IMG/VR virus record: IMGVR_UViG_2617270976_000017
Location: 1 to 16,721 of that record
Strand: one strand, 5' to 3'
Source: a virus
Lineage: Duplodnaviria; Heunggongvirae; Uroviricota; Caudoviricetes
DNA length: 16,721 nt
Positions 1 through 16,721 of this stretch are shown here, one piece after another. Numbering within the stretch: the first letter of the stretch is position 1; each line of letters begins with the position of its first letter. The translations under genes were made by a program, and so were the position numbers. The notes beneath the pieces are model-generated. The model had not been told where the DNA came from. It made no database searches and was given only the letters and a program-made list of their open reading frames with translations.

Positions 1-378
1 CCTGCTGACCATTGTCTGCATGATGTTCAGGATATGAGTACGATTAATCATCCCCGGGCTGACCTGAGCAAAGGGCAGTACGGCTGTGTCGGACAGGGCT
101 TACATATTGCCAAAAAACTGCTTCCGTATATCCCTAATAACGCGGGGATCCTGCTGGTACCATGCTGTCGTGGTGGTTCGGCATTCACCCAGGGCACGGA
201 GGGGACATTCAGCGAGTCCACGGGGGCCAGTCAGGATTCGGCTCGCTGGGGAGTGGGTAAGCCGTTATATCAGGATCTGCTTTTCCGCACGAAGGCAGCA
301 TTGCAGAAAAACCCGAAAAACGTTTTGCTGGCGATATGCTGGATGCAGGGGGAATTCGATATGACGAATGCCAGTTAG
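1..378 (+). CDS. 3' portion of a hypothetical prophage protein; reading frame is open from base 1, so probably 5'-truncated by the window edge
   Basis: Frame 1 has no stop from position 1 to TAG at 376-378; the ORF track starts it at ATG 34 only because that is the first Met. GC-rich like the phage backbone. No family recognised with confidence (a weak impression of an SGNH/esterase-like 'W-x-QGE-x-D' block, not verifiable here). Confidence 0.4.
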   Translation, partial: PADHCLHDVQDMSTINHPRADLSKGQYGCVGQGLHIAKKLLPYIPNNAGILLVPCCRGGSAFTQGTEGTFSESTGASQDSARWGVGKPLYQDLLFRTKAALQKNPKNVLLAICWMQGEFDMTNAS

Positions 379-587
379 TGCTGGTGAGCCTTGACGGGCT
401 GATCTCCTATGCAGCAAAGGTTCATCTCAAAGTAAGACGAACGCTATGACAAACCAAGATTCTATAGACCTATCTGATCTTCGTGGAATGGTCAGTTTTC
501 CAGACAAAAGGTAATCACCATAGTCGTATGGCTATGAATCTTGTTGCTGCAGATAAGCATTTTGTGATTGAAGTGGTCAAATCTCTC

Positions 588-644
588 AAATGCAGTAAAA
601 TGCAGTGCGCTATAATTCAATAACGGAGGGAGTAAGGAGAAGTC
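588..644 (+). promoter_or_regulatory. putative promoter/RBS region for the 645..1265 gene: tandem AAATGCAGT x2 (588-606), TATAAT (611-616), strong Shine-Dalgarno GGAGGG/AAGGAGA (625-640)
   Basis: Perfect -10 hexamer 29 nt upstream of ATG 645; double SD motif 5-15 nt upstream of the ATG; no convincing -35, so promoter call is weak. Confidence 0.3.
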
Positions 645-1265
645 ATGAAAGATCAAGATGTTAGGTTCGCGGTGCATCATAAGCTTTTGAAAGAATCGCA
701 TTTAGATCCAGACTGCCTTGTGGTCGATGAATTTTCCATATCCCTTGGCGCCAGTAGAGCAGACATTGCTGTAATAAATGGTGTTATACACGGGTACGAG
801 CTCAAAAGTGAATATGACTCTTTGGAGCGTTTGCCTCTTCAAATCAAGCATTATTCTTCTGTAATGGACAAGGTTACTCTTGTCGTAGCTGAGAAACACC
901 TTGAGGGAGCATTAAAGTTAATCCCAGGTTGGTGGGGCGTTAAAACGGTTTCTGTTGGGCCAAAAGGCGCCATTCTTATAAAGCACATGCGTGGAGAAAA
1001 GCTTAATCGAAACCATGACACATTGATGCTCGCTCAATTGCTTTGGAAAGATGAATGTATCGACGTACTTGAACGATGGGGCTATTCCAAAGGAATCAAA
1101 AGCAAGCCCCGATTTGAGTTATGGAATATTATTGCGGAAAATATTCCAATAGCGAATCTCAGGCTTGAAGTCAGAACAGCCTTAAAGAAACGCGTAGGCT
1201 GGAAAGTTAAGGCTTGGCAGGCTGAGTCTGCGCCAACCAATAAAGCTGTCTCACGACTAACGTAA
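645..1265 (+). CDS. hypothetical 206-aa protein with a PD-(D/E)xK-like nuclease signature (..RADIAVINGVIHGYELKSE..); accessory (moron) gene
   Basis: Long ORF with strong RBS; AT-richer than the flanking phage structural genes; Asp followed ~12 residues later by E-L-K in hydrophobic beta-strand-like context, as in restriction-endonuclease-fold proteins. Family assignment not possible without HMM search. Confidence 0.65.
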   Translation: MKDQDVRFAVHHKLLKESHLDPDCLVVDEFSISLGASRADIAVINGVIHGYELKSEYDSLERLPLQIKHYSSVMDKVTLVVAEKHLEGALKLIPGWWGVKTVSVGPKGAILIKHMRGEKLNRNHDTLMLAQLLWKDECIDVLERWGYSKGIKSKPRFELWNIIAENIPIANLRLEVRTALKKRVGWKVKAWQAESAPTNKAVSRLT

Positions 1266-2274
1266 TATGGTGCGTATGTGCAACTTTACGCCATTCTTTA
1301 GAGCCGCCAGATTTGTTAGCGCCTAATGATCTTTGGTAAATGTAATCATCCCCCCAACTAAATTTGGAGCCAAAGACTTGATACTCTGGCGAACTAACAA
1401 GGGTAGTACATAAGTTTTTAGTTTGGCCCCATCCATTTCCTTTAACTGCGGTACCTTTTACAAAGATCCATGAGGTATCGTTCGAATATCTCACTGAGAC
1501 ATACTGAGACATGAAGCGTGGGTCTACGCTCGTAATGGTAGAGCTAGCGGTGGGATAATCACTAAAACTTGGCGTTCTTCCATTGCTAAAATTCTGTACT
1601 ACGTACATCCAAAGATCGTATTCATGGCGCGGAATATGATGAACTTGATGTTGCGGTATCCCTGCCTGTGATGCCGGGTATGCGGTTGAAGATAAAATCA
1701 AGTTTCTCCACGGAGCTTGGCCTGATAATGTGTTGACCATGCTTAATGCTTGTTGTTTTAAACTATCAGTTGCGTTTTGAATATCTCCAAAATCAATGAT
1801 TACATCAATTAAACTAGGATGAATATTTAAGTGGTTAACCAGACTTGTGAATTGGTGCCATGTCTGGGGGGTGATAGATATAGCGAGCCCATTGATTAAG
1901 TTGCGTTGAACAGCATGTATATAGTTTGTTGAATATGCGGGAGAAACAACAGGGATAATTTCCTTACCATTTACTCTAGCATCTTGGATACACATATCTA
2001 GAGGATGATGGCGGCTCGAACCATGTTTATCTAAATATTTAACATCCAGCAAAACAGGACGATTGGCTTTCCAGGATGCCGCAAGGTTAATACCGAAGTC
2101 AGATAAGTAAGAACTCAAACTCTTCTTGTAGCATTCGTTTTCATAATCCCAGTCTATGTCTGGAATGGTAATGATCGGAGTAAAACCAGAGAGCGTAGTT
2201 TGATCTAAAAGCATCAGAGATTCATATTCAGCAGGCTTCCATTTCAGCTGTGGATAATATTGATGTTGACTCAT
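1207..2274 (-). CDS. hypothetical 355-aa protein, convergent to and overlapping the 3' end of 645..1265; accessory gene
   Basis: Long minus-strand ORF; ATG at 2274-2272 preceded by a perfect AAGGAG (complement of 2280-2285) with 5-nt spacing; same AT-rich composition as its neighbour. No recognisable lambda homolog. Confidence 0.65.
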   Translation of the reverse strand: MSQHQYYPQLKWKPAEYESLMLLDQTTLSGFTPIITIPDIDWDYENECYKKSLSSYLSDFGINLAASWKANRPVLLDVKYLDKHGSSRHHPLDMCIQDARVNGKEIIPVVSPAYSTNYIHAVQRNLINGLAISITPQTWHQFTSLVNHLNIHPSLIDVIIDFGDIQNATDSLKQQALSMVNTLSGQAPWRNLILSSTAYPASQAGIPQHQVHHIPRHEYDLWMYVVQNFSNGRTPSFSDYPTASSTITSVDPRFMSQYVSVRYSNDTSWIFVKGTAVKGNGWGQTKNLCTTLVSSPEYQVFGSKFSWGDDYIYQRSLGANKSGGSKEWRKVAHTHHITLVVRQLYWLAQTQPAKP

Positions 2275-2470
2275 TAAAACTCCTTAAAATCTTTACTTAT
2301 CCTAAGTATAGTGTTATGGCGTAACGCCAATTGTTTTTATACACTTGAAAACATTGGGAAAAGTTGAGCTATATCTAAATTTACAAAATTGGATGTTATA
2401 GAAATCGAGGTTTCAACTAGGCATGGAACTGCAAAATTTTTAATGCCTGCACGCGAAAGTCGTTGGCGGG

Positions 2471-2497
2471 TCCTTTCCGGTGATCCAGATCGTTACG
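2471..2497 (+). other. cosQ-like segment immediately upstream of cosN
   Basis: TCCTTTCCGGTGATCC...GTTACG matches my recollection of the last ~27 bases of the phage lambda genome (right end). Confidence 0.55.
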
Positions 2498-2509
2498 GGG
2501 CGGCGACCT
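2498..2509 (+). other. cosN: 12-nt cohesive-end sequence GGGCGGCGACCT
   Basis: Exact match to the lambda 12-nt cohesive end, followed by CTCGCGG(T)TTTTC-CTATTTATGAAAATTTT as at the lambda left end. Confidence 0.8.
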
Positions 2510-2684
2510 CGCGGTTTTTCACTATTTATGAAAATTTTTCAGGGAAAATCGTGTCGGTACTTCTCGAATATAACTTTTTGTTTTTTTTAATATTGCATTC
2601 ATAAATGTCCGACATGAAAGTGTCCGAAAATGCCTTTTTTTGGCGTTTTCATGTCGGGCCTTGTATTTGATAATGAGTTGTTCT
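2510..2684 (+). promoter_or_regulatory. cosB-like terminase binding region with three oppositely oriented core elements (TGTCGG at 2552-2557, CCGACA at 2609-2614, TGTCGG at 2652-2657) and an AT-rich segment between the first two
   Basis: Position between cosN and the Nu1 start, +/-/+ orientation and spacing (about +54, +111, +154 from cosN) mirror the lambda R3-I1-R2-R1 layout, but the element sequence differs from lambda's. Confidence 0.55.
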
Positions 2685-3233
2685 ATGAAGGTTAATAAAA
2701 AGAGGCTTGCCGAAATTTTTAACGTGGACCCGCGGACGATTGAACGCTGGCAGTCTCAGGGGCTCCCTTGCGTCTCCAAAGGCAGTAAGGGCATTGAATC
2801 TGTATTTGATACTGCCATGGCAATTCAGTGGTATGCGCAGAGGGAAACTGATATCGAAAACGAAAAGCTCCGCAAAGAACTGGCCGATTTGCGTGCGGCA
2901 GCGGAGTCAGATTTACAACCCGGCACCATTGACTATGAACGCTACCGGCTCACAAAAGCGCAGGCAGATGCGCAGGAACTGAAAAATGCCCGTGAAGACG
3001 GAGTGGTGCTGGAAACTGAACTATTTACCTTCATTCTGCAACGTGTGGCACAGGAGATTTCGGGGATACTTGTGCGTGTGCCGTTGACATTACAGCGTAA
3101 ATATCCGGACATTTCACCATCACACCTTGATGTGGTGAAAACTGAAATCGCGAAAGCCTCCAATGTTGCAGCTAAGGCCGGTGAAAACGTGGGCGGGTGG
3201 ATCGATGATTTCAGACGCACAGAAGGCAGCTAA
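2685..3233 (+). CDS. nu1: terminase small subunit (lambda Nu1 homolog)
   Basis: [12 protein letters not shown]...[12 protein letters not shown]...[49 protein letters not shown] aligns along its length with lambda gpNu1 as recalled. Start taken at ATG 2685 (the ORF track's 2640 uses an upstream TTG). Confidence 0.9.
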
Positions 3234-5133
3234 TGCAGCCGGTGCGATAGCTACAGGGCTTTTATCTCTCATTATTCCTGTTCCACTGACGACAGTTCAG
3301 TGGGCCAATAAACATTATTACCTTCCTAAAGAGTCGTCTTATACCCCGGGGCGGTGGGAAACACTGCCGTTTCAGGTTGGCATCATGAACTGTATGGGCA
3401 ACGATTTGATTCGCACTGTTAACCTGATTAAATCTGCCCGTGTTGGTTATACAAAGATGTTGCTGGGAGTGGAGGCTTATTTTATTGAGCATAAATCACG
3501 CAACAGCCTTCTTTTTCAGCCCACGGACTCAGCTGCTGAAGATTTTATGAAATCTCATGTTGAGCCAACGATAAGGGATGTTCCTGCATTGCTGGAGCTG
3601 GCTCCATGGTTCGGAAGAAAACACCGCGATAATACGCTCACCCTGAAGCGTTTTTCCTCCGGTGTGGGTTTCTGGTGTCTGGGGGGAGCGGCAGCAAAAA
3701 ACTACCGTGAAAAATCCGTGGATGTGGTTTGTTATGACGAGCTTTCCTCGTTCGAACCGGATGTTGAAAAAGAGGGTTCGCCAACCCTGCTGGGGGATAA
3801 ACGTATTGAGGGCTCTGTATGGCCAAAATCCATTCGCGGCTCGACGCCTAAAATCAAAGGCTCCTGCCAGATCGAAAAAGCCGCTAACGAGTCGGCACAT
3901 TTCATGCGTTTTTATGTGCCCTGTCCGCACTGTGGGGAGGAGCAGTATCTGAAATTTGGCGATGATGCCTCGCCTTTCGGTCTTAAGTGGGAGAAGAATA
4001 AGCCAGAAAGTGTTTTCTACCTTTGTGAGCATCATGGCTGTGTGATCCATCAGTCTGAGCTTGACCAGAGTAACGGGCGGTGGATCTGTGAAAACACGGG
4101 CATGTGGACTCGTGACGGTCTGACATTTTTCAGCGCCGCGGATAATGAAATTCCGCCGCCGCGCTCCATCACATTCCATATCTGGACGGCGTACAGTCCG
4201 TTCACCACCTGGGTACAGATTGTCTATGACTGGCTGGATGCACTGAAAGATCCCAACGGCCTGAAAACCTTTGTGAACACCACGCTGGGCGAGACCTGGG
4301 AAGAGGCCGTGGGCGAAAAACTCGATCACCAGGTGCTGATGGATAAGGTTGTGCGTTACACGGCTGCGGTGCCTTCCCGGGTGGTTTATCTGACGGCGGG
4401 CATTGACTCGCAGCGAAACCGTTTTGAGATGTATGTCTGGGGATGGGCTCCGGGAGAGGAAGCCTTTCTGGTGGATAAAATCATCATTATGGGGCGTCCC
4501 GATGAGGAAGAGACGCTGTTACGTGTGGATGTGGCGATCAACAAAAAATACCGCCATGCAGACGGAACCGAAATGACCATTTCCCGTGTCTGCTGGGACA
4601 CCGGGGGGATCGATGGCGAAATTGTCTATCAGAGGTCAAAAAAACACGGTGTTTTCCGGGTGCTGCCGGTAAAAGGTGCATCTGTTTATGGCAAGCCGGT
4701 GATCACCATGCCAAAAACCCGCAATCAGCGGGGCGTGTATCTGTGCGAAGTGGGGACGGACACCGCAAAAGAAATTCTCTATGCCCGTATGAAAGCCGAT
4801 CCCACGCCTGCGGATGAAGCCACGTCGTATGCCATCCGTTTTCCTGATGATCCGGAGATTTTTTCGCAGACAGAGGCGCAGCAACTGGTGGCGGAAGAGC
4901 TTGTGGAGAAGTGGGAAAAAGGAAAGATGCGTCTGCTGTGGGATAACAAAAAGCGGCGTAACGAAGCGCTGGACTGCCTGGTGTATGCCTACGCGGCATT
5001 ACGTGTGTCCGTGCAACGCTGGCAGCTTGATCTGGCTGTACTGGCAAAATCCCGGGAAGAAGAGACGACCCGGCCAACCCTTAAAGAACTGGCAGCGAAG
5101 CTGTCCGGAGGAGTGAATGGTTACAGTCGCTGA
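3205..5133 (+). CDS. A: terminase large subunit (lambda gpA homolog)
   Basis: Strong colinear similarity to lambda gpA ([24 protein letters not shown]..., [33 protein letters not shown]..., [10 protein letters not shown]...). Start placed at ATG 3205 (MISDAQ...), overlapping the Nu1 3' end as in lambda. Confidence 0.95.
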
Positions 5134-5323
5134 ACTGCAGGCGCTGCGTCAGGCGCGCCTTGATTTATTAACCGGTAAACGGGTGGTGTCTGTCCAGAAA
5201 GATGGTCGCAGAATTGAATATACGGCAGCTTCTCTGGATGAGCTTAACCGGGCGATCAATGATGCGGAGTCGGTACTGGGGACAACCCGCCGTCGCCGTC
5301 GTCCGCTGGGAGTGAGGTTATGA
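5117..5323 (+). CDS. W: head-tail joining / head completion protein (lambda gpW homolog, 68 aa)
   Basis: 68-aa ORF with LLTGKRVVSVQKDGRRIEYTA core matching lambda gpW; overlaps A stop and B start (ATGA) as in lambda. Confidence 0.9.
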   Translation: MVTVAELQALRQARLDLLTGKRVVSVQKDGRRIEYTAASLDELNRAINDAESVLGTTRRRRRPLGVRL

Positions 5324-7029
5324 AACGAACGCCTGTCCTGATTGATGTGAACGGCGTTCCGCTTCGGGAGAGCCTCAGCTACAACGGTGGCGGTGCAGGA
5401 TTTGGCGGGCAAATGGCAGAGTGGTTGCCACCCTCGCAGAGTGCCGATGCGGCCCTGCTGCCCGCGTTGCGTCTGGGGAATGCCCGTGCAGATGATCTGG
5501 TGCGCAATAACGGAATAGCGGCCAATGCGGTGGCCCTGCATAAGGATCACATTGTCGGGCATATGTTTCTGATTAGCTACCGTCCGAACTGGCGCTGGCT
5601 GGGGATGCGGGAGACCGCGGCAAAAAGTTTTGTCGATGAGGTGGAGGCGGCCTGGTCAGAATACGCAGAAGGGATGTTTGGTGAGATCGACGTGGAAGGG
5701 AAACGCACGTTTACGGAATTTATCCGTGAAGGTGTGTGCGTTCATGCGTTTAACGGCGAAATCTTTGTGCAGCCGGTCTGGGATACGGAGAGTACGCAAC
5801 TGTTTCGTACGCGTTTTAAAGCCGTGAGTCCGAAACGGGTGGACACGCCAGGACACGGTATCGGGAACCGTTTTCTGCGGGCCGGTGTGGAGGTTGATCG
5901 ATATGGCCGTGCCGTTGCGTACCATATCTGTGAGGATGATTTTCCTCGCTCCGGGAGTGGACGATGGGAACGGATCCCGCGTGAACTACCCACCGGGCGT
6001 CCGGCCATGCTGCATATTTTCGAGCCGGTGGAGGACGGGCAGACCCGTGGAGCCAATCAGTTTTACAGCGTTATGGAACGGCTGAAGATGCTCGATTCCC
6101 TGCAGGCAACACAGCTTCAGTCGGCCATAGTGAAGGCGATGTATGCAGCGACGATTGAAAGTGACCTTGATACCGAAAAGGCCTTTGAATATATCGCCGG
6201 TGCGCCGCAGGGGCAGAAGGATAATCCGCTTATTAATATTCTGGATAAGTTCTCCACCTGGTATGACACGAATAGCGTGACGCTGGGCGGTGTCAAAATT
6301 CCGCACCTTTTCCCCGGTGATGATCTGAAACTTCAGACCGCGCAGGATTCAGACAATGGATTTTCGGCGCTTGAACAGGCGCTGCTGCGGTATATCGCCG
6401 CCGGTCTTGGCGTTTCCTACGAACAGTTGTCCCGTGATTACTCGAAGGTCAGTTACTCAAGTGCCCGCGCATCCGCCAATGAGTCGTGGCGCTATTTTAT
6501 GGGGCGGCGAAAATTTATTGCGTCCCGGCTGGCCACGCAGATGTTTTCCTGCTGGCTGGAAGAGGCACTTCTTCGGGGGATTATTCGTCCGCCACGGGCA
6601 CGGTTTGATTTTTATCAGGCGCGATCAGCCTGGTCACGGGCTGAGTGGATTGGAGCCGGAAGAATGGCCATTGACGGGCTCAAGGAGGTTCAGGAATCAG
6701 TGATGCGCATTGAGGCCGGACTGAGCACGTATGAGAAAGAGCTGGCGCTGATGGGCGAGGATTATCAGGACATTTTCCGCCAGCAGGTCAGGGAATCTGC
6801 AGAGCGGGAAAAAGCCGGACTCTCACGTCCGGTGTGGATAGCGCAGGCGTATCAGCAGCAGATAGCGGAGAGTCGCAGGCCGGAAGAGGAGACAGTCGCG
6901 GATGAATATGACCAGCCGACGTCCGATATCACGAAGGATAAATGCAGCAAATGCCTGAGCGGCTGTAAGTTTCGCAATAACGTCGGCAACTTTGGCGGCT
7001 TCCTTTCCATTAACAAACTTTCGCAGTAA
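5320..7029 (+). CDS. B: portal protein (lambda gpB homolog) whose last codons are replaced by an in-frame fusion to the 3' end of tail gene L
   Basis: Residues 1-~525 colinear with lambda gpB (GGGAGFGGQ..., FEPVEDGQTRGANQFYSVME..., LRYIAAGLGVSYEQLSR...); the final 44 residues VADEYDQPTSDITKDKCSKCLSGCKFRNNVGNFGGFLSINKLSQ match the C-terminus of lambda gpL. Confidence 0.85.
   Translation: MKRTPVLIDVNGVPLRESLSYNGGGAGFGGQMAEWLPPSQSADAALLPALRLGNARADDLVRNNGIAANAVALHKDHIVGHMFLISYRPNWRWLGMRETAAKSFVDEVEAAWSEYAEGMFGEIDVEGKRTFTEFIREGVCVHAFNGEIFVQPVWDTESTQLFRTRFKAVSPKRVDTPGHGIGNRFLRAGVEVDRYGRAVAYHICEDDFPRSGSGRWERIPRELPTGRPAMLHIFEPVEDGQTRGANQFYSVMERLKMLDSLQATQLQSAIVKAMYAATIESDLDTEKAFEYIAGAPQGQKDNPLINILDKFSTWYDTNSVTLGGVKIPHLFPGDDLKLQTAQDSDNGFSALEQALLRYIAAGLGVSYEQLSRDYSKVSYSSARASANESWRYFMGRRKFIASRLATQMFSCWLEEALLRGIIRPPRARFDFYQARSAWSRAEWIGAGRMAIDGLKEVQESVMRIEAGLSTYEKELALMGEDYQDIFRQQVRESAEREKAGLSRPVWIAQAYQQQIAESRRPEEETVADEYDQPTSDITKDKCSKCLSGCKFRNNVGNFGGFLSINKLSQ
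6895..7029 (+). pseudogene. L: 3' remnant of tail tip gene L (last ~44 codons) fused to B
   Basis: C-terminal gpL sequence including the Cys-rich CSKCLSGC block; immediately followed by K as in lambda gene order L-K-I-J. Confidence 0.7.
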
Positions 7030-8793: not shown

Positions 8794-10186
8794 ATGGGTA
8801 AAGGAAGCAGTAAGGGGCATACCCCGCGCGAAGCGAAGGACAACCTGAAATCCACGCAATTACTGAGTGTGATCGATGCCATCAGCGAAGGGCCGATTGA
8901 AGGTCCGGTGGATGGATTAAAAAGCGTGCTGCTGAACAGTACACCGGTGCTGGACAGTGAGGGGAATACCAACATCTCCGGTGTCACGGTGGTGTTCCGG
9001 GCAGGTGAGCAGGAGCAGACACCGCCGGAGGGATTTGAATCCTCCGGTTCCGAGACGGTGCTGGGTACGGAAGTGAAATACGACACGCCGATCACCCGGA
9101 CCATCACGTCTGCAAACATCGACCGTCTGCGCTTTACCTTCGGTGTGCAGGCTCTGGTGGAAACCACCTCAAAGGGGGACCGGAATCCGTCGGAAGTCCG
9201 CCTGCTGGTTCAGATACAACGTAACGGTGGCTGGGTGACGGAAAAAGACATCACCATTAAGGGCAAAACCACCTCGCAGTATCTGGCCTCGGTGGTGGTG
9301 GGTAACCTGCCGCCGCGCCCGTTTAATATCCGGATGCGCAGAATGACGCCGGACAGCACCACAGACCAGCTGCAGAACAAAACGCTCTGGTCGTCATACA
9401 CCGAAATCATCGATGTGAAACAGTGCTATCGGTGCCGGTATTGAGAATACGCCAGCAGGAATGCAGAGTCAGGTGCTGCTGGCGGCAGACAGGATTGCGA
9501 TGATTAATCCTGCGAATGGCAACACAAAGCCGATGTTTGTTGGTCAGGGCGATCAGATATTTATGAATGAAGTGTTCCTGAAATATCTGACGGCTCCCAC
9601 CATTACCAGCGGCGGTAATCCTCCGGCATTTTCCCTGACACCGGACGGGCGGCTGACGGCGAAAAATGCCGATATCAGCGGTAACGTGAATGCGAACTCC
9701 GGGACGCTCAACAACGTCACGATTAACGAGAACTGTCGGGTTCTGGGAAAATTGTCCGCGAACCAGATTGAAGGCGATCTCGTTAAAACAGTGGGCAAAG
9801 CTTTCCCCCGGGACTCCCGTGCACCGGAGCGGTGGCCATCAGGAACCATTACCGTCAGGGTTTATGACGATCAGCCGTTTGACCGGCAGATTGTTATTCC
9901 GGCGGTGGCATTCAGCGGCGCTAAACATGAGAAAGAGCATACTGATATTTACTCCTCATGCCGTCTGATAGTGCGGAAAAACGGTGCTGAAATTTATAAC
10001 CGTACCGCGCTGGATAATACGCTGATTTACAGTGGTGTTATTGATATGCCTGCCGGTCACGGTCACATGACACTGGAGTTTTCGGTGTCAGCATGGCTGG
10101 TAAATAACTGGTATCCCACAGCAAGTATCAGCGATTTGCTGGTTGTGGTGATGAAGAAAGCCACTGCAGGCATCACGATTAGCTGA
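8794..10186 (+). pseudogene. J: tail tip/host specificity gene J, disrupted: N-terminal ~210 codons (8794..9444) joined out of frame to the C-terminal ~240 codons (9461..10186); central ~2 kb missing
   Basis: 8794..9444 matches lambda gpJ residues 1-~212 nearly residue for residue and then stops (..VKQCYRCRY*); 9461..10186 in another frame matches the gpJ C-terminal region (..[32 protein letters not shown]..) with a divergent extreme C-terminus. Confidence 0.8.
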
Positions 10187-10958: not shown

Positions 10959-10990
10959 AGCCCGTGGCGTCACTGCTGCGGGCTTTTTTT
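10959..10990 (+). terminator. terminator-like stem (AGCCCG...CGGGCT) followed by T7 tract
   Basis: 6-bp stem with a long (14-nt) loop and TTTTTTT immediately downstream; loop is long, so call is weak. Confidence 0.4.
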
Positions 10991-11004
10991 ATTGGTGGAA
11001 AAGT

Positions 11005-13911
11005 ATGACAGTAAAAATTTCTGGCGTGCTTAAAGATGGCACAGGAAAACCAGTACAGAACTGCACCATTGTGCTGAAGGCCAGACGAACCAGCAGCACG
11101 GTGGTGGTGAACACGGTGGCCTCTGAAAATCCGGATGAAGCCGGACGTTACAGCATGGATGTTGAGCATGGTCAGTACAGCGTCACCCTGCTGGTTGAAG
11201 GTTTTCCGCCTTCACATGCCGGGACCATTACCGTCTATGAAGGTTCCAGACCAGGTACGCTGAATGATTTTCTCGGTGCCATGACGGAGGATGATGTCCG
11301 ACCGGAGGCACTGCGCCGCTTTGAGCAGATGGTAGAAGAGGTGTCACGTAACGCCTCCGCGGTTGCACAGAATACGGCAGCCGCGAAAAAATCAGTCAGC
11401 GATGCCAGTGCATCAGCCAGCGAGGCGGCAACTCATGCAACCGATGCTGCAGCCTCAGCACGTGCCGCCAGCACGTCAGCCGGACAGGCCGCGTCGTCGG
11501 CTCAGTCAGCGTCTTCCAGCGCAGGAACGGCATCGACAAAGGCCCGTGAAGCAGCAAAAAGTGCTGCTGCTGCAGAGTCATCAAAAAGCGCGGCAGCTAC
11601 CAGCGCCAGTGCCGCGAAAACGTCAGAAACGAATGCCGCAGCATCACAAAAATCGGCAGCCACTTCTGCATCCACAGCGACCACGAAGGCGTCAGAAGCT
11701 GCCACCTCGGCACGGGGTGCGGCGGCCTCAAAAGAGGCAGCGAAATCTTCAGAAACGAATGCATCATCAAGTGCCAGTAGTGCAGCTTCCTCGGCAACGG
11801 CGGCAGGAAATTCCGCGAAGGCGGCAAAAACGTCCGAGACGAACGCTAAGTCTTCTGAAACAGCAGCGGGACAGAGCGCCTCAGCTGCGGCAGGTTCAAA
11901 AACAGCGGCTGCATTATCTGCCAGTGCCGCGTCAACAAGTGCCGGGCAGGCCTCAGCCAGTGCCACCGCCGCCGGAAAATCGGCAGAAAGCGCCGCATCA
12001 TCCGCTTCAACAGCCACAACGAAGGCTGGCAAAGCCACTGAGCAAGCCACTGCAGCAGCGAGGTCTGCTTCTGCAGCAAAAACCTCTGAAACAAATGCAA
12101 AGACTTCAGCAGACAATGCTGCTTCCTCTAAGGCGGCAGCCGCATCGTCAGCCAGTTCAGCGGCGTCATCGGCATCATCTGCGTCTGCTTCAAAAGATGA
12201 GGCGACCAGACAAGCGTCAGCAGCGAAAGGTAGTGCCACGACAGCAACAACGAAAGCATCAGAGGCAGCTGGTAGTGCGACGGCGGCAGCTCAGAGCAAA
12301 AGTACGGCGGAATCCGCGGCAACGCGCGCCGAGACAGCAGCAAAACGGGCAGAGGATATTGCATCCGCCGTGGCGCTGGAGGATGCGAGCACGACGAAAA
12401 AGGGGATAGTACAGCTCAGCAGTGCGACCAACAGCACTTCCGAGTCACTGGCGGCAACGCCAAAAGCGGTTAAGGCGGTAATGGGTGAAACGAACAAGAA
12501 AGCGCCCTTAAATAGTCCTGCACTGACCGGAACGCCAACAACACCAACTGCGCGACAGGGAACGAATAATACCCAAATCGCAAGCACGGCTTATGTTATG
12601 GCTGCGATCGCTGCCCTCGTGGACTCGTCGCCTGACGCACTGAATACGCTGAACGAGCTGGCTGCGGCGTTGGGCAACGACCCGAATTTTGCGACCACCA
12701 TGACTAGCGCGCTTGCGGGTAAGCAACCGAAAGATGCCACCCTGACGGCGCTGGCCGGGCTTGCTACTGCGGCAGACAGGTTTCCGTATTTTACGGGGAA
12801 TGATGTTGCCAGTCTGGCAATCCTGACAAAAGTTGGGCGGGATATTCTTGCGAAATCGACCGTTGCCGCCGTTATCGAATACCTCGGTTTACAGGAAACG
12901 GTAAACAAGGCTGGTAACGCCGTTCAGCGTTCCGGCGATAAAATGACCGGAGAACTGAAAATTGGCACGGTGAATGCGCTGCGAATTTTCAATGATGCCT
13001 TCGGTCTTATTTTCCGTCGTTCAGAAGATTTTCTTCATTTCATTCCGACGGCTGAAGGACAAGGCGAAAACGGTGATATCGGCCCATTAAGGCCATTCGC
13101 TATAAATCTGAGAACAGGTGCTATATCTGTCAGCCACGGGGCCAAAATTGATGGTGGGCTGGCGCTTGGTACAGATAACGCACTGGGCGGTAATTCCATT
13201 ACTCTCGGAGATAACGACACTGGTATTAAACAGGGCGGCGACGGTGTCCTTTTATTCTATTCAAATGGACAACTGGCATTTGGGCTTCAACCCGCATCTG
13301 CTGATTTTTATAAGCGGGTTGCATATATTCATCAGGGAATAATTCCTGATGGAAGTGGCGCATTTGCAGACCAGTTGAATAATGCCACCGCGCCTTTTGT
13401 TCAGACGCAGTTTGCCTGGAATCCCACTCCTGGTGGTCATTACGTGCCGATAGTTAAGGGCTTGTCCATTCGCAATGGACAGGGCTATCCCGGCGCGGTC
13501 AGCTTTGGGTATTTACTGACAGAACAGTATGGATTTCCGGTTCCATGTATTCATATGCGTGGCGATGGAGGTAATGATGCTTTATGGTATTTTAACCCGA
13601 ACGATAAATCCTTTATTTCACCGGGTGCTCTTATTGCGGGTGGCGTCCGTTATAACACCGATGGAAATATATTTGGTGGGTGCTGGGGTTCAAACTTAAA
13701 TGATTACCTGAATAGTTCTTTTATCAGAAATGTGCGTCTGGGAGGCAGACGTTCTGACACATTATATCGCGGAGGACTTTGCGAACCAGGTAATGGTCAT
13801 GTGACAACAGGATTGCAAATTATTGGTGAGGTTGATGGAGATGACTGGATGGTGTCACGACCACTACAAAAATACATTTCTGGTAACTGGTATAACGTTG
13901 AACAGGCATAG
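11005..13911 (+). CDS. stf: side tail fibre protein (Stf family), 968 aa, with Ala/Ser-rich repetitive shaft
   Basis: N-terminus MTVKISGVLKDGTGKP.QNCTIVLKARRTSSTVV and ...YSVTLLVEGFPPSHAGTITVYE match the conserved Stf N-domain; long A/S-rich repeat region; C-terminal tip ...PLQKYISGNWYNVEQA. Confidence 0.9.
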   Translation: MTVKISGVLKDGTGKPVQNCTIVLKARRTSSTVVVNTVASENPDEAGRYSMDVEHGQYSVTLLVEGFPPSHAGTITVYEGSRPGTLNDFLGAMTEDDVRPEALRRFEQMVEEVSRNASAVAQNTAAAKKSVSDASASASEAATHATDAAASARAASTSAGQAASSAQSASSSAGTASTKAREAAKSAAAAESSKSAAATSASAAKTSETNAAASQKSAATSASTATTKASEAATSARGAAASKEAAKSSETNASSSASSAASSATAAGNSAKAAKTSETNAKSSETAAGQSASAAAGSKTAAALSASAASTSAGQASASATAAGKSAESAASSASTATTKAGKATEQATAAARSASAAKTSETNAKTSADNAASSKAAAASSASSAASSASSASASKDEATRQASAAKGSATTATTKASEAAGSATAAAQSKSTAESAATRAETAAKRAEDIASAVALEDASTTKKGIVQLSSATNSTSESLAATPKAVKAVMGETNKKAPLNSPALTGTPTTPTARQGTNNTQIASTAYVMAAIAALVDSSPDALNTLNELAAALGNDPNFATTMTSALAGKQPKDATLTALAGLATAADRFPYFTGNDVASLAILTKVGRDILAKSTVAAVIEYLGLQETVNKAGNAVQRSGDKMTGELKIGTVNALRIFNDAFGLIFRRSEDFLHFIPTAEGQGENGDIGPLRPFAINLRTGAISVSHGAKIDGGLALGTDNALGGNSITLGDNDTGIKQGGDGVLLFYSNGQLAFGLQPASADFYKRVAYIHQGIIPDGSGAFADQLNNATAPFVQTQFAWNPTPGGHYVPIVKGLSIRNGQGYPGAVSFGYLLTEQYGFPVPCIHMRGDGGNDALWYFNPNDKSFISPGALIAGGVRYNTDGNIFGGCWGSNLNDYLNSSFIRNVRLGGRRSDTLYRGGLCEPGNGHVTTGLQIIGEVDGDDWMVSRPLQKYISGNWYNVEQA
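11350..12370 (+). repeat. intragenic tandem-repeat region of stf encoding the Ala/Ser-rich shaft (recurring ..AAKTSETNA.. units)
   Basis: Repeated nucleotide blocks such as gcgaaaacgtcagaaacgaatgc / gcaaaaacgtccgagacgaacgc / gcaaaaacctctgaaacaaatgc recur at ~11615, ~11745, ~11825, ~12075. Confidence 0.6.
12872..12897 (+). other. 26-bp recombination (crossover) site of a Gin/Pin/Cin/Hin-type inversion system, inside stf
   Basis: TTATCGAATACCTCGGTTTACAGGAA closely resembles the gix/pix-type crossover sites as I recall them and is an inverted copy (22/26) of the site at 15951..15976. Confidence 0.65.
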
Positions 13912-13926
13912 CCATCAGGAGAATAT

Positions 13927-14454
13927 ATGCAACATCTGAAAAATATTACCGCCGGAAACCCCAAAACCATTGAGCAGTATCAGCTTACGAAAAAAGCTGG
14001 CGTTATCTGGCTATATACAGAAGACGGTAAAAACTGGTATGACGAATTAAAAAACTTTCAGGATGATACTTTAAAAATAGCTTATGACCAGAAGGGGATT
14101 ATTCGTTGTATTGAGAAAGACGTATCAATGCTTAACCCTGACGGGTTAAGTGTTGTTGAGTTACCGAATATAACAGCCAACCGTCGCGCCGATATCTCGG
14201 GAAACTGGAAGTTTCTGGATGGTAAAGTAGTAAAGCGGGAATATACAAAACAGGAACTGCAACAGCAGGCAGAGTTACAAAAAGCCGCTTTGCTTTCCGA
14301 AGCGGAGTCTGTGATTCAACCGCTGGAACGTGCTGTCAGACTGAATATGGCAACTGATGAGGAACGCACACGACTGGAATCATGGGAACGCTACAGCGTT
14401 ATGGTCAGCCGTGTGGATACTGCAAAGCCTGAATGGCCACAGAAACCAGAATAA
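13927..14454 (+). CDS. tfa: tail fibre assembly protein (Tfa family)
   Basis: 175-aa ORF directly after stf with good RBS (CAGGAGA); N-terminal half matches the conserved Tfa pattern and is paralogous to the inverted ORF at 14485..15018. Confidence 0.85.
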
Positions 14455-14465
14455 CAACAAATTAA

Positions 14466-14485
14466 GGCCCGTACGGGCCTTTTCT
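14466..14485. terminator. bidirectional terminator hairpin (GGCCCG-TA-CGGGCC) between the convergent tfa genes
   Basis: Perfect 6-bp GC stem with T-rich flanks on both strands, located between the stop codons of the two convergent tfa genes. Confidence 0.5.
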
Positions 14486-15018
14486 TATTCTGGTGGTTCC
14501 GGGAATGTTACAGGAAGAACCGAGGTATCAGTTGTCTCAACCTGTTGCACGTATCGCATCCAGTTCATCAGTTGCTGTCTGTCTGAATCAGTGATAATCC
14601 CCAAAGTAAGCTGTGTTTGCCAGAACTGCGTTTTTTCTCTGGCCTGCTGTAATAATATTTTTTTCTGGTTTTCCGTCTGTAGGCGCAACTCTTCTTCGGT
14701 ATATACACGTTTAATGACTGCGCCATCTTTAAACATCCATTTACCTGAGTCGTCAGCACGCCGGTTGGCGGTAATATCAGGAATCTCAACGACGCTATAA
14801 CCTTCAGGGTTAAGTGTGGAGGCATCTTTGGTTATGGCAACAATAATATTATTTTCATCGTAAACAATCTTTATGGTGTCTGGCTGAAAGTTTTTCACTT
14901 CCTCATACCAGTTTTTTCCGTCCTCAGAGTAAAGCCAGATAACTCCGTGTTTCTTTGTTAACTCATACTGTTCCAGTGTTTTAGCATTACCCGCTTTTAT
15001 GTTCTTTAAGTGCATCAT
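14485..15018 (-). CDS. tfa: tail fibre assembly protein, second copy in inverted orientation (Tfa')
   Basis: [45 protein letters not shown]... is clearly paralogous to the + strand Tfa ([45 protein letters not shown]...). Confidence 0.85.
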
Positions 15019-15019
15019 A

Positions 15020-15523
15020 TTAAACGCTCGCTACATTATACCAGGTGCCATTTATATACTTTTGAACGGGTCTGTAATAAACGCCCGCTATATTATCGGC
15101 AGAGTTAGACCCTGTATCCTGAACATTAATACCAGACAATACATGACCTGAAGGGCACTGGAAATTCCATGTTTGCCAGTTGTTCACTCCATAATATTGC
15201 TGTGAACCAAGTCGAACATCTTTCACATAACGGGAATCAAAGTTACCGTAATCCGAGGGGTTAACACGCCCTGTAATATTTATGGTTTTATTACTTTGAA
15301 TGCTTCCGGAGACAAAGCGCATAACATGGACGTTATTAGCATAAACATCCAGATTACCATCGCCATTTTGTTTAAAGCCCGTGTCATTATCACCCAATAC
15401 AATCGAATTACCGCCAAGAGCACTGGATGTTCCGATACCCAGTGCACCATTCAGTTGACCACCAGATAACGGCAGTGATAGAAACAGAAGCCACTGGAGC
15501 ACCTCAAAAACACCATCATACAC
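15020..15523 (-). CDS. stf: alternative side tail fibre C-terminal (receptor-binding) segment, inverted orientation (StfE-like fragment)
   Basis: Contains ..[22 protein letters not shown].. and C-terminal ..[16 protein letters not shown], paralogous to the stf tip (..ALGGNSITLGDNDTGIKQGGDG.. / ..PLQKYISGNWYNVEQA); stop abuts tfa' start. Confidence 0.75.
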
Positions 15524-15587
15524 TAAATCAGTAAGTTGGCAGCATCACCCACGGGCTGAACGATAAAAAATACCGCCATTTTTATAA

Positions 15588-15962
15588 TTAATCCAAAAAC
15601 TGAGCTGCAGGACAACTTCCTTCTCCCATATAAAAATGAATAATTAACGTTGATGCACCACTAATAGTTGCGTTATAGGCTCCGCTACTCCAGTTCCATC
15701 CAACTGCTTTATCATTCGCAACGGTGCTTCCTGTTTTCCCTAAGGCAAACGCACCAACATGACTTGCTTTTAATGTGATATCGGAGGAACCATCAAAAGC
15801 CACATTGCTTATTTTCCTGGCAGTTTTTAATTTTGCAGCTGTAGAAGCATTGCCGGATAGTTCACCAGAAAGGCCACCGCTGAATGTTTGTCGATTAGTC
15901 CAGGTATTCGCTGTACTGAGTAACGGTATTTTCTCCCCGCTTGTGCCGAGTTCTCGTAAACC
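15588..15962 (-). pseudogene. proximal part of the alternative stf variable segment, in frame with the crossover site but separated from the distal part (15020..15523) by stops in all frames
   Basis: Reading the minus strand from the crossover site at 15962 gives an open frame (GLRELGTSGEKIPLL...GSCPAAQFLD) ending at TAA 15588-15590; the downstream tip ORF is in a different frame. Confidence 0.45.
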
Positions 15963-15976
15963 GAGGTTTTAGATAA
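15951..15976 (+). other. second 26-bp crossover site, inverted relative to 12872..12897
   Basis: TTCTCGTAAACCGAGGTTTTAGATAA; its reverse complement TTATCTAAAACCTCGGTTTACGAGAA matches the stf-internal site at 22/26 positions with an identical central ACCTCGGTTTAC core. Confidence 0.65.
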
Positions 15977-16030
15977 TGGCGGTTTCTGGCCTGCATGGCA
16001 TGATTTGTGCTTTTGGACGGGAGATTCAGC

Positions 16031-16436
16031 GTGCTGATTGGCTATGTAAGGGTATCAACAAATGACCAGAATACAGATCTGCAACGAAACGCTCTTGTTT
16101 GTGCAGGATATGAACAAATATTTGAAGATAAATTAAGCGGAACAAGGACAGGCCGACCTGGATTAAAACGTGCTTTAAAGCGCCTTCAAAAAGGTGACGC
16201 ACTGGTTGTCTGAAAACTGGACTGACTGGTTCACTGTATGCGGCATCTTGTCGTGCTGGTGGTGGAAGCCTAGAAAAAGTATCGGGTGTTGCTGAACCGT
16301 GTTGATACATCAACTGCACCTGATATTGAGTGGCCTACGAACCCTGTCAGGGAGTAATCATTGGGATTATGCCGCAGCACGTCTTAAGCAAGAACGTGCT
16401 GCGGTTGGATGGTGAACTTTCGATAGTGCGAGTATT
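16031..16436 (+). pseudogene. pin: Pin/Gin/Cin/Hin-family serine DNA invertase, inactivated (first ~60 codons intact, then multiple in-frame stops)
   Basis: VLIGYVRVSTNDQNTDLQRNALVCAGYEQIFEDKLSGTRTGRPGLKRALKRLQKGDALVV matches the invertase N-terminus including the catalytic Ser context; TGA at 16211-16213 falls where a Trp is expected, followed by further stops while residual similarity (..MRHLVVLVVE.., ..RVDTST..) persists. 3' end approximate. Confidence 0.65.
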
Positions 16437-16472
16437 GAATGATTTCCAGCCGTTACCGATTTTACGTGTTAA

Positions 16473-16721
16473 TTAGTGAACAAACCACTCGTCAGCAGAC
16501 TCCCAGGTATCTTTCAGAGTTTCCTGAACAAAAGTTTTAGCTGAATCTTTATCGGCGGTGCGCGTAACAGAAAGGCCATCGTTGCTGGTGGCTTTTACGA
16601 TCACCTCTACATCGTCATAACGTTTACTGATGCGTCGGGTTAATTCTTCCTTTAACGCATCCACAGCACCGTTTGGCATTTTAGTGATTTTTTCTTTAGC
16701 GATACAGATCTCAACACGCAT
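16473..16721 (-). CDS. DinI-family protein (82 aa)
   Basis: [12 protein letters not shown]...[17 protein letters not shown]...LSV....[26 protein letters not shown] matches the DinI pattern as recalled (MRIEVTIAK..., ...ETWESADDWFV); start codon is the last three bases of the window. Confidence 0.8.

Follow-up and report, generated by a model that had tools for sequence, protein, structure and literature searches.

The open reading frame that enters the left edge of the window (the whole 16,721-nucleotide stretch analysed) is very probably a dead remnant of a nanS-p gene, truncated by one 3,032-bp deletion that would also have taken the lysis cassette of the prophage. The remnant occupies positions 1..375 of the plus strand, where it corresponds to codons 118–242 of an intact 618-aa sialate O-acetylesterase of the nanS-p type and spans the central third of the catalytic domain. 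The window reproduces contig JNQT01000033.1 (assembly GCA_000704325.1) from its third base, with two nucleotides of the contig preceding it. No stop interrupts frame 1 of the plus strand between base 1 and a TAG at 376–378, as the first-pass annotation had stated, and the frame comprises 125 sense codons. Stops are present in all five of the remaining frames of 1–378, and frame 1 stays open in 0.28% of mononucleotide shuffles of these bases. Judged by homology, the frame is a real coding sequence and a chance ORF is excluded. The phage 434 homologue differs from it at 31 nucleotides, 24 of them in the third position of a codon; counted by codon, 24 changes are synonymous and 5 non-synonymous, a bias that points to purifying selection on the nanS-p frame in the family. 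Both the homology and the open frame reach base 1 on the left. The ATG at position 34 is an internal codon, Met129 of the 618-aa relative WP_000874301.1; thus the ORF runs in from the left edge. It had been proposed to belong to a larger gene entering from that side, and it does, that gene being the 618-aa esterase. An exact-protein look-up of the 125-aa product returned a single match, JNQT01000033.1 of GCA_000704325.1 itself.

The fragment had been described as being of unknown function, with no family assignable and a faint SGNH/esterase-like impression that was disclaimed at once. Protein and profile searches place it in the SASA/NanS family, so the impression was correct. The 125-aa fragment matches the Pfam profile PF03629 (SASA) with 37.1 bits (E=3.3e-9, profile positions 56–134 of 226), the gathering score of this profile being 24.8 bits, and by this profile match the fragment is a member of the SASA family. 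Similarly, it aligns without gaps to residues 75–196 of E. coli NanS (PDB 3PT5; E=1.2e-54). Searches of NCBIfam and PADLOC with the same fragment gave no match. The closest relative found, WP_000874301.1, is encoded by an intact prophage of E. coli DA33133. Bases 1–377 are 99.7% identical to its gene, with one synonymous difference, and the encoded residues are 100% identical over positions 118–242. Identity at the nucleotide level reaches 99.2% over bases 1–377 with gp03 of the Stx2-converting phage 86, annotated as a "SASA family carbohydrate esterase", 91.5% over bases 1–364 with the esterase gene of phage 434 (CPT_434_71) and about 88% with the "yjhS" genes of many Stx1a phages. WP_000874301.1 carries a DUF1737 domain at residues 3–50, a SASA/NanS-like catalytic domain that aligns to 3PT5 over residues 59–379 (E=4.8e-122) and a C-terminal DUF6645 domain at residues 422–614, which matches the lectin-like domain 6YP6, "NanS-p". 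The gene family is already known, and the fragment is an ordinary pseudogene of it.

The truncation is defined by comparison with the DA33133 prophage, in which the corresponding region is one contiguous locus (L018). By BLAST, window 1–377 corresponds to L018 9863–10239 with 99.7% identity and window 372–6894 to L018 13266–19788 with 99.9% identity, and the two window segments share 6 bp. This overlap, at 372..377, locates the deletion junction and consists of one kept copy of the hexamer CAGTTA, a 6-bp microhomology. In the intact DA33133 locus CAGTTA is present at both breakpoints, at L004 3969–3974 and 7001–7006, with the two copies 3,032 bp apart. The left breakpoint of DA33133 reads GACGAATGC-CAGTTA-CGCCCAG and the right one GAGTAGT-CAGTTA-GTGCTGGTGAGCC, and the window across the junction reads GACGAATGC-CAGTTA-GTGCTGGTGAGCC, the junction-spanning sequence being GACGAATGCCAGTTAGTGCTGGTGAGCC. 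According to the DA33133 annotation, the deleted interval comprises nanS-p codons 243–618 and the genes for a class II holin, YdfR, a lysozyme (rrrQ) and an Rz-type lysis protein, and it also holds about 145 bp of spacer. The plus-strand TAG at 376..378 is a composite, with TA contributed by the Tyr243 codon TAC and G by the spacer 3' of Rz. Since the junction turns Tyr243 TAC into TAG, the stop is not the gene's own. The fragment is thus an internal segment and not, as had been supposed, the tail of its gene; a native tail was considered as a candidate and rejected on account of the junction-made stop. The sequence that follows, at 378..644, is recognised by its identity to L018 as the spacer separating Rz from the sce7726 gene in intact relatives; here it is joined directly to the esterase remnant. 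The composition profile drops from a GC content of about 0.55 in the remnant to about 0.40–0.43 past the junction. Truncation relative to a near-identical intact homologue, a non-native stop and the loss of essential residues are all found at the locus, which on these sequence criteria is a pseudogene and deletion remnant.

A single deletion between the two CAGTTA hexamers, with one copy retained, would account for this arrangement, presumably through microhomology-mediated illegitimate recombination or replication slippage. Codon 242 would have been fused to the spacer 5' of the sce7726/Beta module, creating the immediate TAG, and nanS-p codons 243–618 would have been lost in one event together with the whole lysis cassette (holin, YdfR, lysozyme and Rz/Rz1). 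The loss of the lysis genes may form part of ordinary prophage decay or domestication. With one synonymous difference from the intact relative, the remnant appears to carry no decay beyond the truncation itself, which fits a recent deletion without proving a loss of function. It is a long shot that the deletion was not neutral but a selected step of domestication: the cassette for killing the host by lysis is taken out precisely as far as the spacer of the putatively anti-phage sce7726/Beta module, which would leave that module and a DUF1737/half-esterase stub under the late promoter, the stub possibly having gained a non-catalytic role.

Intact relatives establish where the gene natively resides. 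Their order is Q, further genes, nanS-p, holin, lysozyme and Rz, with nanS-p preceding the lysis cassette, and the series nanS-p, holin, lysozyme, Rz, sce7726/Beta and Nu1 is found in several independent genomes and in phages 86 and 434. In loci that encode an identical 206-aa sce7726 protein, the sce7726 gene lies at a constant distance 3' of an Rz-type lysis gene (10 of 10 loci read), and in the same ten loci nanS-p, where present, is upstream of the holin gene. The native slot of the window gene would thus be between Q/(stx) and the holin gene, as judged from the 99.7–99.9% identical flanks, the holin side of the window having been deleted. The first-pass annotation had taken the fragment for an accessory gene located past the lysis module, a placement that the intact relatives contradict; an accessory gene 3' of the lysis module was accordingly rejected, its native site being 5' of the holin gene. 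It had also suggested that the lysis genes might lie further upstream. In intact relatives they are found between nanS-p and sce7726/Beta, and here that interval is deleted. Because the intervening lysis module was lost, the nearness of the fragment to cos is a secondary feature. The fragment does lie a little upstream of cos in a lambdoid prophage, as had been proposed: an exact copy of the 12-nt lambda cohesive-end sequence cosN, GGGCGGCGACCT, is present on the plus strand at 2498..2509 with no mismatches.

The expected product lacks a large part of the enzyme. In NanS, according to a passage in PMC9063846 that cites Rangarajan 2011, the catalytic residues are Ser19 and His301, and the oxyanion hole includes Gln18 and a Gly. 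NanS Gln18 and Ser19 align to Gln72 and Ser73 of the 618-aa relative (AGQSNA; block I, GQSN), and the equivalent of Ser73 falls 45 codons before the first base of the window. NanS His301 aligns to His359 (THFSS), which falls within the deleted codons 243–618, and the catalytic His of the SASA/NanS family is thereby absent from the remnant. Residues 243–379, the final 137 of the catalytic domain in the alignment, are deleted as well. Similarly, the C-terminal lectin-like domain (DUF6645/6YP6, residues 422–614) is missing, as the frame ends at codon 243 and is followed by the Rz–sce7726 spacer. The DUF1737 equivalent (residues 3–50) falls, like the remainder of the first 117 codons, upstream of the window and the contig edge. 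The longest product would be about 242 aa, and it would keep DUF1737 and the Ser nucleophile only if the 5' part beyond the contig edge is intact. From the mechanism of the family, the truncated product should be catalytically dead; no esterase activity is expected, because the catalytic His, those 137 residues and the carbohydrate-binding domain have been lost.

A naturally shorter but functional protein, either a truncated esterase or a DUF1737 protein retained for a task such as capsid decoration, would be compatible with a frame that is intact up to the junction and with 100% amino acid identity to a functional-type relative. This reading gains from the phi24B homologue, in which the processed DUF1737 alone is a capsid-binding decoration domain (bioRxiv 10.64898/2026.04.10.717836). 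It is nevertheless extremely improbable. The product would lack the His359 equivalent and residues 243–379 of the domain aligned to NanS, its stop arose by accident at the junction, none of 5,426 complete E. coli genomes carries the truncated allele and, with the capsid genes lost from the window prophage, nothing is left to decorate. An independent gene of 114 aa starting at ATG 34 has a practically negligible probability. An ATG-initiated ORF of this length at 34..378 does exist and is present in the ORF list, but homology and the open frame continue upstream of its ATG to base 1 and the contig end, the ATG itself is the internal Met129 codon, and all relatives at this position encode proteins of 617–662 aa. 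An isolated 114-aa ORF, which the first-pass annotation had said a stop just before position 34 and a lack of homologues would indicate, was rejected on the in-frame homology upstream of 34; there is no such stop, and homologues are abundant. The truncated nanS-p pseudogene is the reading that these observations favour.

The junction is known from a single draft assembly. A megablast search with window 230–520 against 5,426 complete E. coli genomes retrieved none that carries it, it was likewise missing from 50,697 phage records, the exact junction 38-mer gave 0 matches in GTDB representative genomes and a junction 24-mer gave 0 matches in JGI metagenome contigs. When proteins were searched with the 125-aa fragment, the matches were mainly "partial" fragments, and none was a truncated allele of about 242 aa with the C-terminus MTNAS. 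These partial nanS-p fragments sit on contigs of 250–650 bp, each representing hundreds to more than 1,000 sequences, which indicates that short-read assemblies break in nanS-p because it is a multi-copy repeat. The start of the contig inside nanS-p is, we infer, the result of such a repeat-induced break. The same property raises the question of whether the join at 372–377 is an assembly artefact, in which a nanS-p repeat copy was chimerically linked to the sce7726 region of a genome that in truth holds an intact nanS-p gene and lysis cassette; the position of the contig start within the gene and the observation of the junction in one assembly only would agree with this. It is very improbable all the same. 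An overlap of 6 bp is far below assembler k-mers and could not alone produce a false join, while both flanks of the junction are collinear with one relative, DA33133, the gap being a clean deletion bounded by direct repeats. Moreover, two other clean deletions are present in the window prophage, one of them recovered in an independent assembly, and analogous independent truncations occur in complete genomes. The deletion that created the nanS-p remnant is very probably genuine.

Downstream of the spacer, a two-gene accessory module of low GC content lies between the former position of Rz and cos. Its first gene, on the plus strand at 645..1265, encodes a 206-aa sce7726-family (phage P4 cII-like) protein (NF033832, E=2.3e-54; PADLOC "cll", E=4.3e-31; Pfam PF26915), and the second, on the minus strand at 1207..2274, encodes a 355-aa Beta-family protein (PF14350, Pfam E=8.2e-56; PADLOC PD-Lambda-2_C, E=4.4e-32, and "beta", E=3.5e-10). 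The two genes are convergent and overlap by 59 bp, and they form the surroundings of the esterase gene, not a part of it. Both proteins match PADLOC models of anti-phage systems, namely cll/beta of P4 gop-beta-cII and PD-Lambda-2_C (PMC9122126), and nothing obviously resembling gop as a third gene beside the pair was seen in the ORF listing. The start of the module was matched in 643 of 5,426 complete E. coli genomes and the exact sce7726-module protein is present in 8,256 index blocks, the module being very common in E. coli prophages; among 50,697 deposited phage genomes no close match was found, the best displaying 29.9% amino acid identity (Rac-SA53). The cosN site lies about 175 bp upstream of the start of Nu1 (2685–3233; Pfam Phage_Nu1, E=2.6e-81), which is followed by gpA (3205–5133) with its GpA ATPase and nuclease domains (Pfam). 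Cos and the terminase genes have been kept although the head genes are gone.

Two further deletions relative to DA33133 are found in the window. At 6893/6894 a 9,793-bp deletion with a 2-bp microhomology (CA) has fused the portal gene, near its 3' end, with tail gene L, taking the genes for the protease, decoration and capsid proteins, FI/FII, Z, U, V, G, T, H and M, and leaving a portal::L fusion ORF of 569 aa at 5320–7029. An independent Logan assembly of SRR1186598 contains the same fusion protein. At 9427/9428 a 2,087-bp out-of-frame deletion with a 2-bp microhomology (TA) lies inside the tail-tip gene J and splits it into short ORFs at 8794–9444 and 9461–10186. With the nanS-p/lysis deletion and these two, the element is, as read from its gene content, a cryptic E. 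coli prophage remnant that has lost its lysis and head functions and most of those of the tail. In other genomes, the nanS-p/lysis locus has been truncated independently: DLI.5a displays a truncated esterase followed by Rz1, FDAARGOS_1248 a truncated holin and an ENA contig (L013) a 297-aa esterase stub. From 10978 to 16721 the window diverges from DA33133, with 85–88% identity or no match. This region holds a tail fibre ORF of 968 aa (11005–13911), Caudo_TAP tail-fibre-assembly genes at 13927–14454 on the plus strand and at 14485–15018 on the minus strand, and a DinI-family gene at the right window edge. The opposite orientation of the two Caudo_TAP genes suggests that the tail-fibre region is invertible or mosaic.

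NanS-p copies enable E. coli to use the O-acetylated sialic acids of mucin. The number of nanS-p copies in a genome bears on inferences of gut fitness, and the copy in the window is not one that can be counted as functional. The proper label of the fragment is a pseudogene of nanS-p, a SASA-family sialate O-acetylesterase, in place of a gene of unknown function, and that of the prophage is a lysis-defective and morphogenesis-defective remnant. The contig also provides an example of short-read contigs breaking within multi-copy nanS-p. Beyond correct annotation the importance of the locus is slight.

The intact counterparts of the window gene are the NanS-p proteins, three-domain 9-O-acetyl-sialic-acid esterases of both Stx and non-Stx lambdoid phages and a late-operon family of lambdoid prophages to which the window gene likewise belongs (PMC10462455) and which includes 933W L0105, phi24B vb_24B_21/gp84, gp03 of Stx2 phage 86 and CPT_434_71 of phage 434. 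In contrast to these, the window carries no more than the middle of the gene: the 3' 60%, with the rest of the catalytic domain, its catalytic His and the 6YP6-type domain, has been deleted. The stop is made by the junction and the downstream lysis cassette is gone, so that the locus represents a pseudogene and not a functional member of the family. With the chromosomal NanS of E. coli (YjhS), a 9-O-acetyl-N-acetylneuraminic acid esterase, the fragment shares the SGNH type II catalytic fold family (PMC9063846). NanS, however, has one domain and about 326 aa and is encoded in the nan regulon, whereas the ancestor of the window gene was the three-domain phage version, and the fragment lacks the equivalents of both catalytic residues, Ser19 and His301. 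The prophage as a whole resembles cryptic or defective lambdoid prophages of E. coli such as DLP12, Rac and Qin, in which lysis and morphogenesis genes have likewise been lost. In the window prophage several deletions, with microhomologies of 6, 2 and 2 bp, have left accessory ("moron") genes in place. It represents a separate prophage lineage, which carries a lambda-like cos/Nu1/A region together with the sce7726/Beta module.
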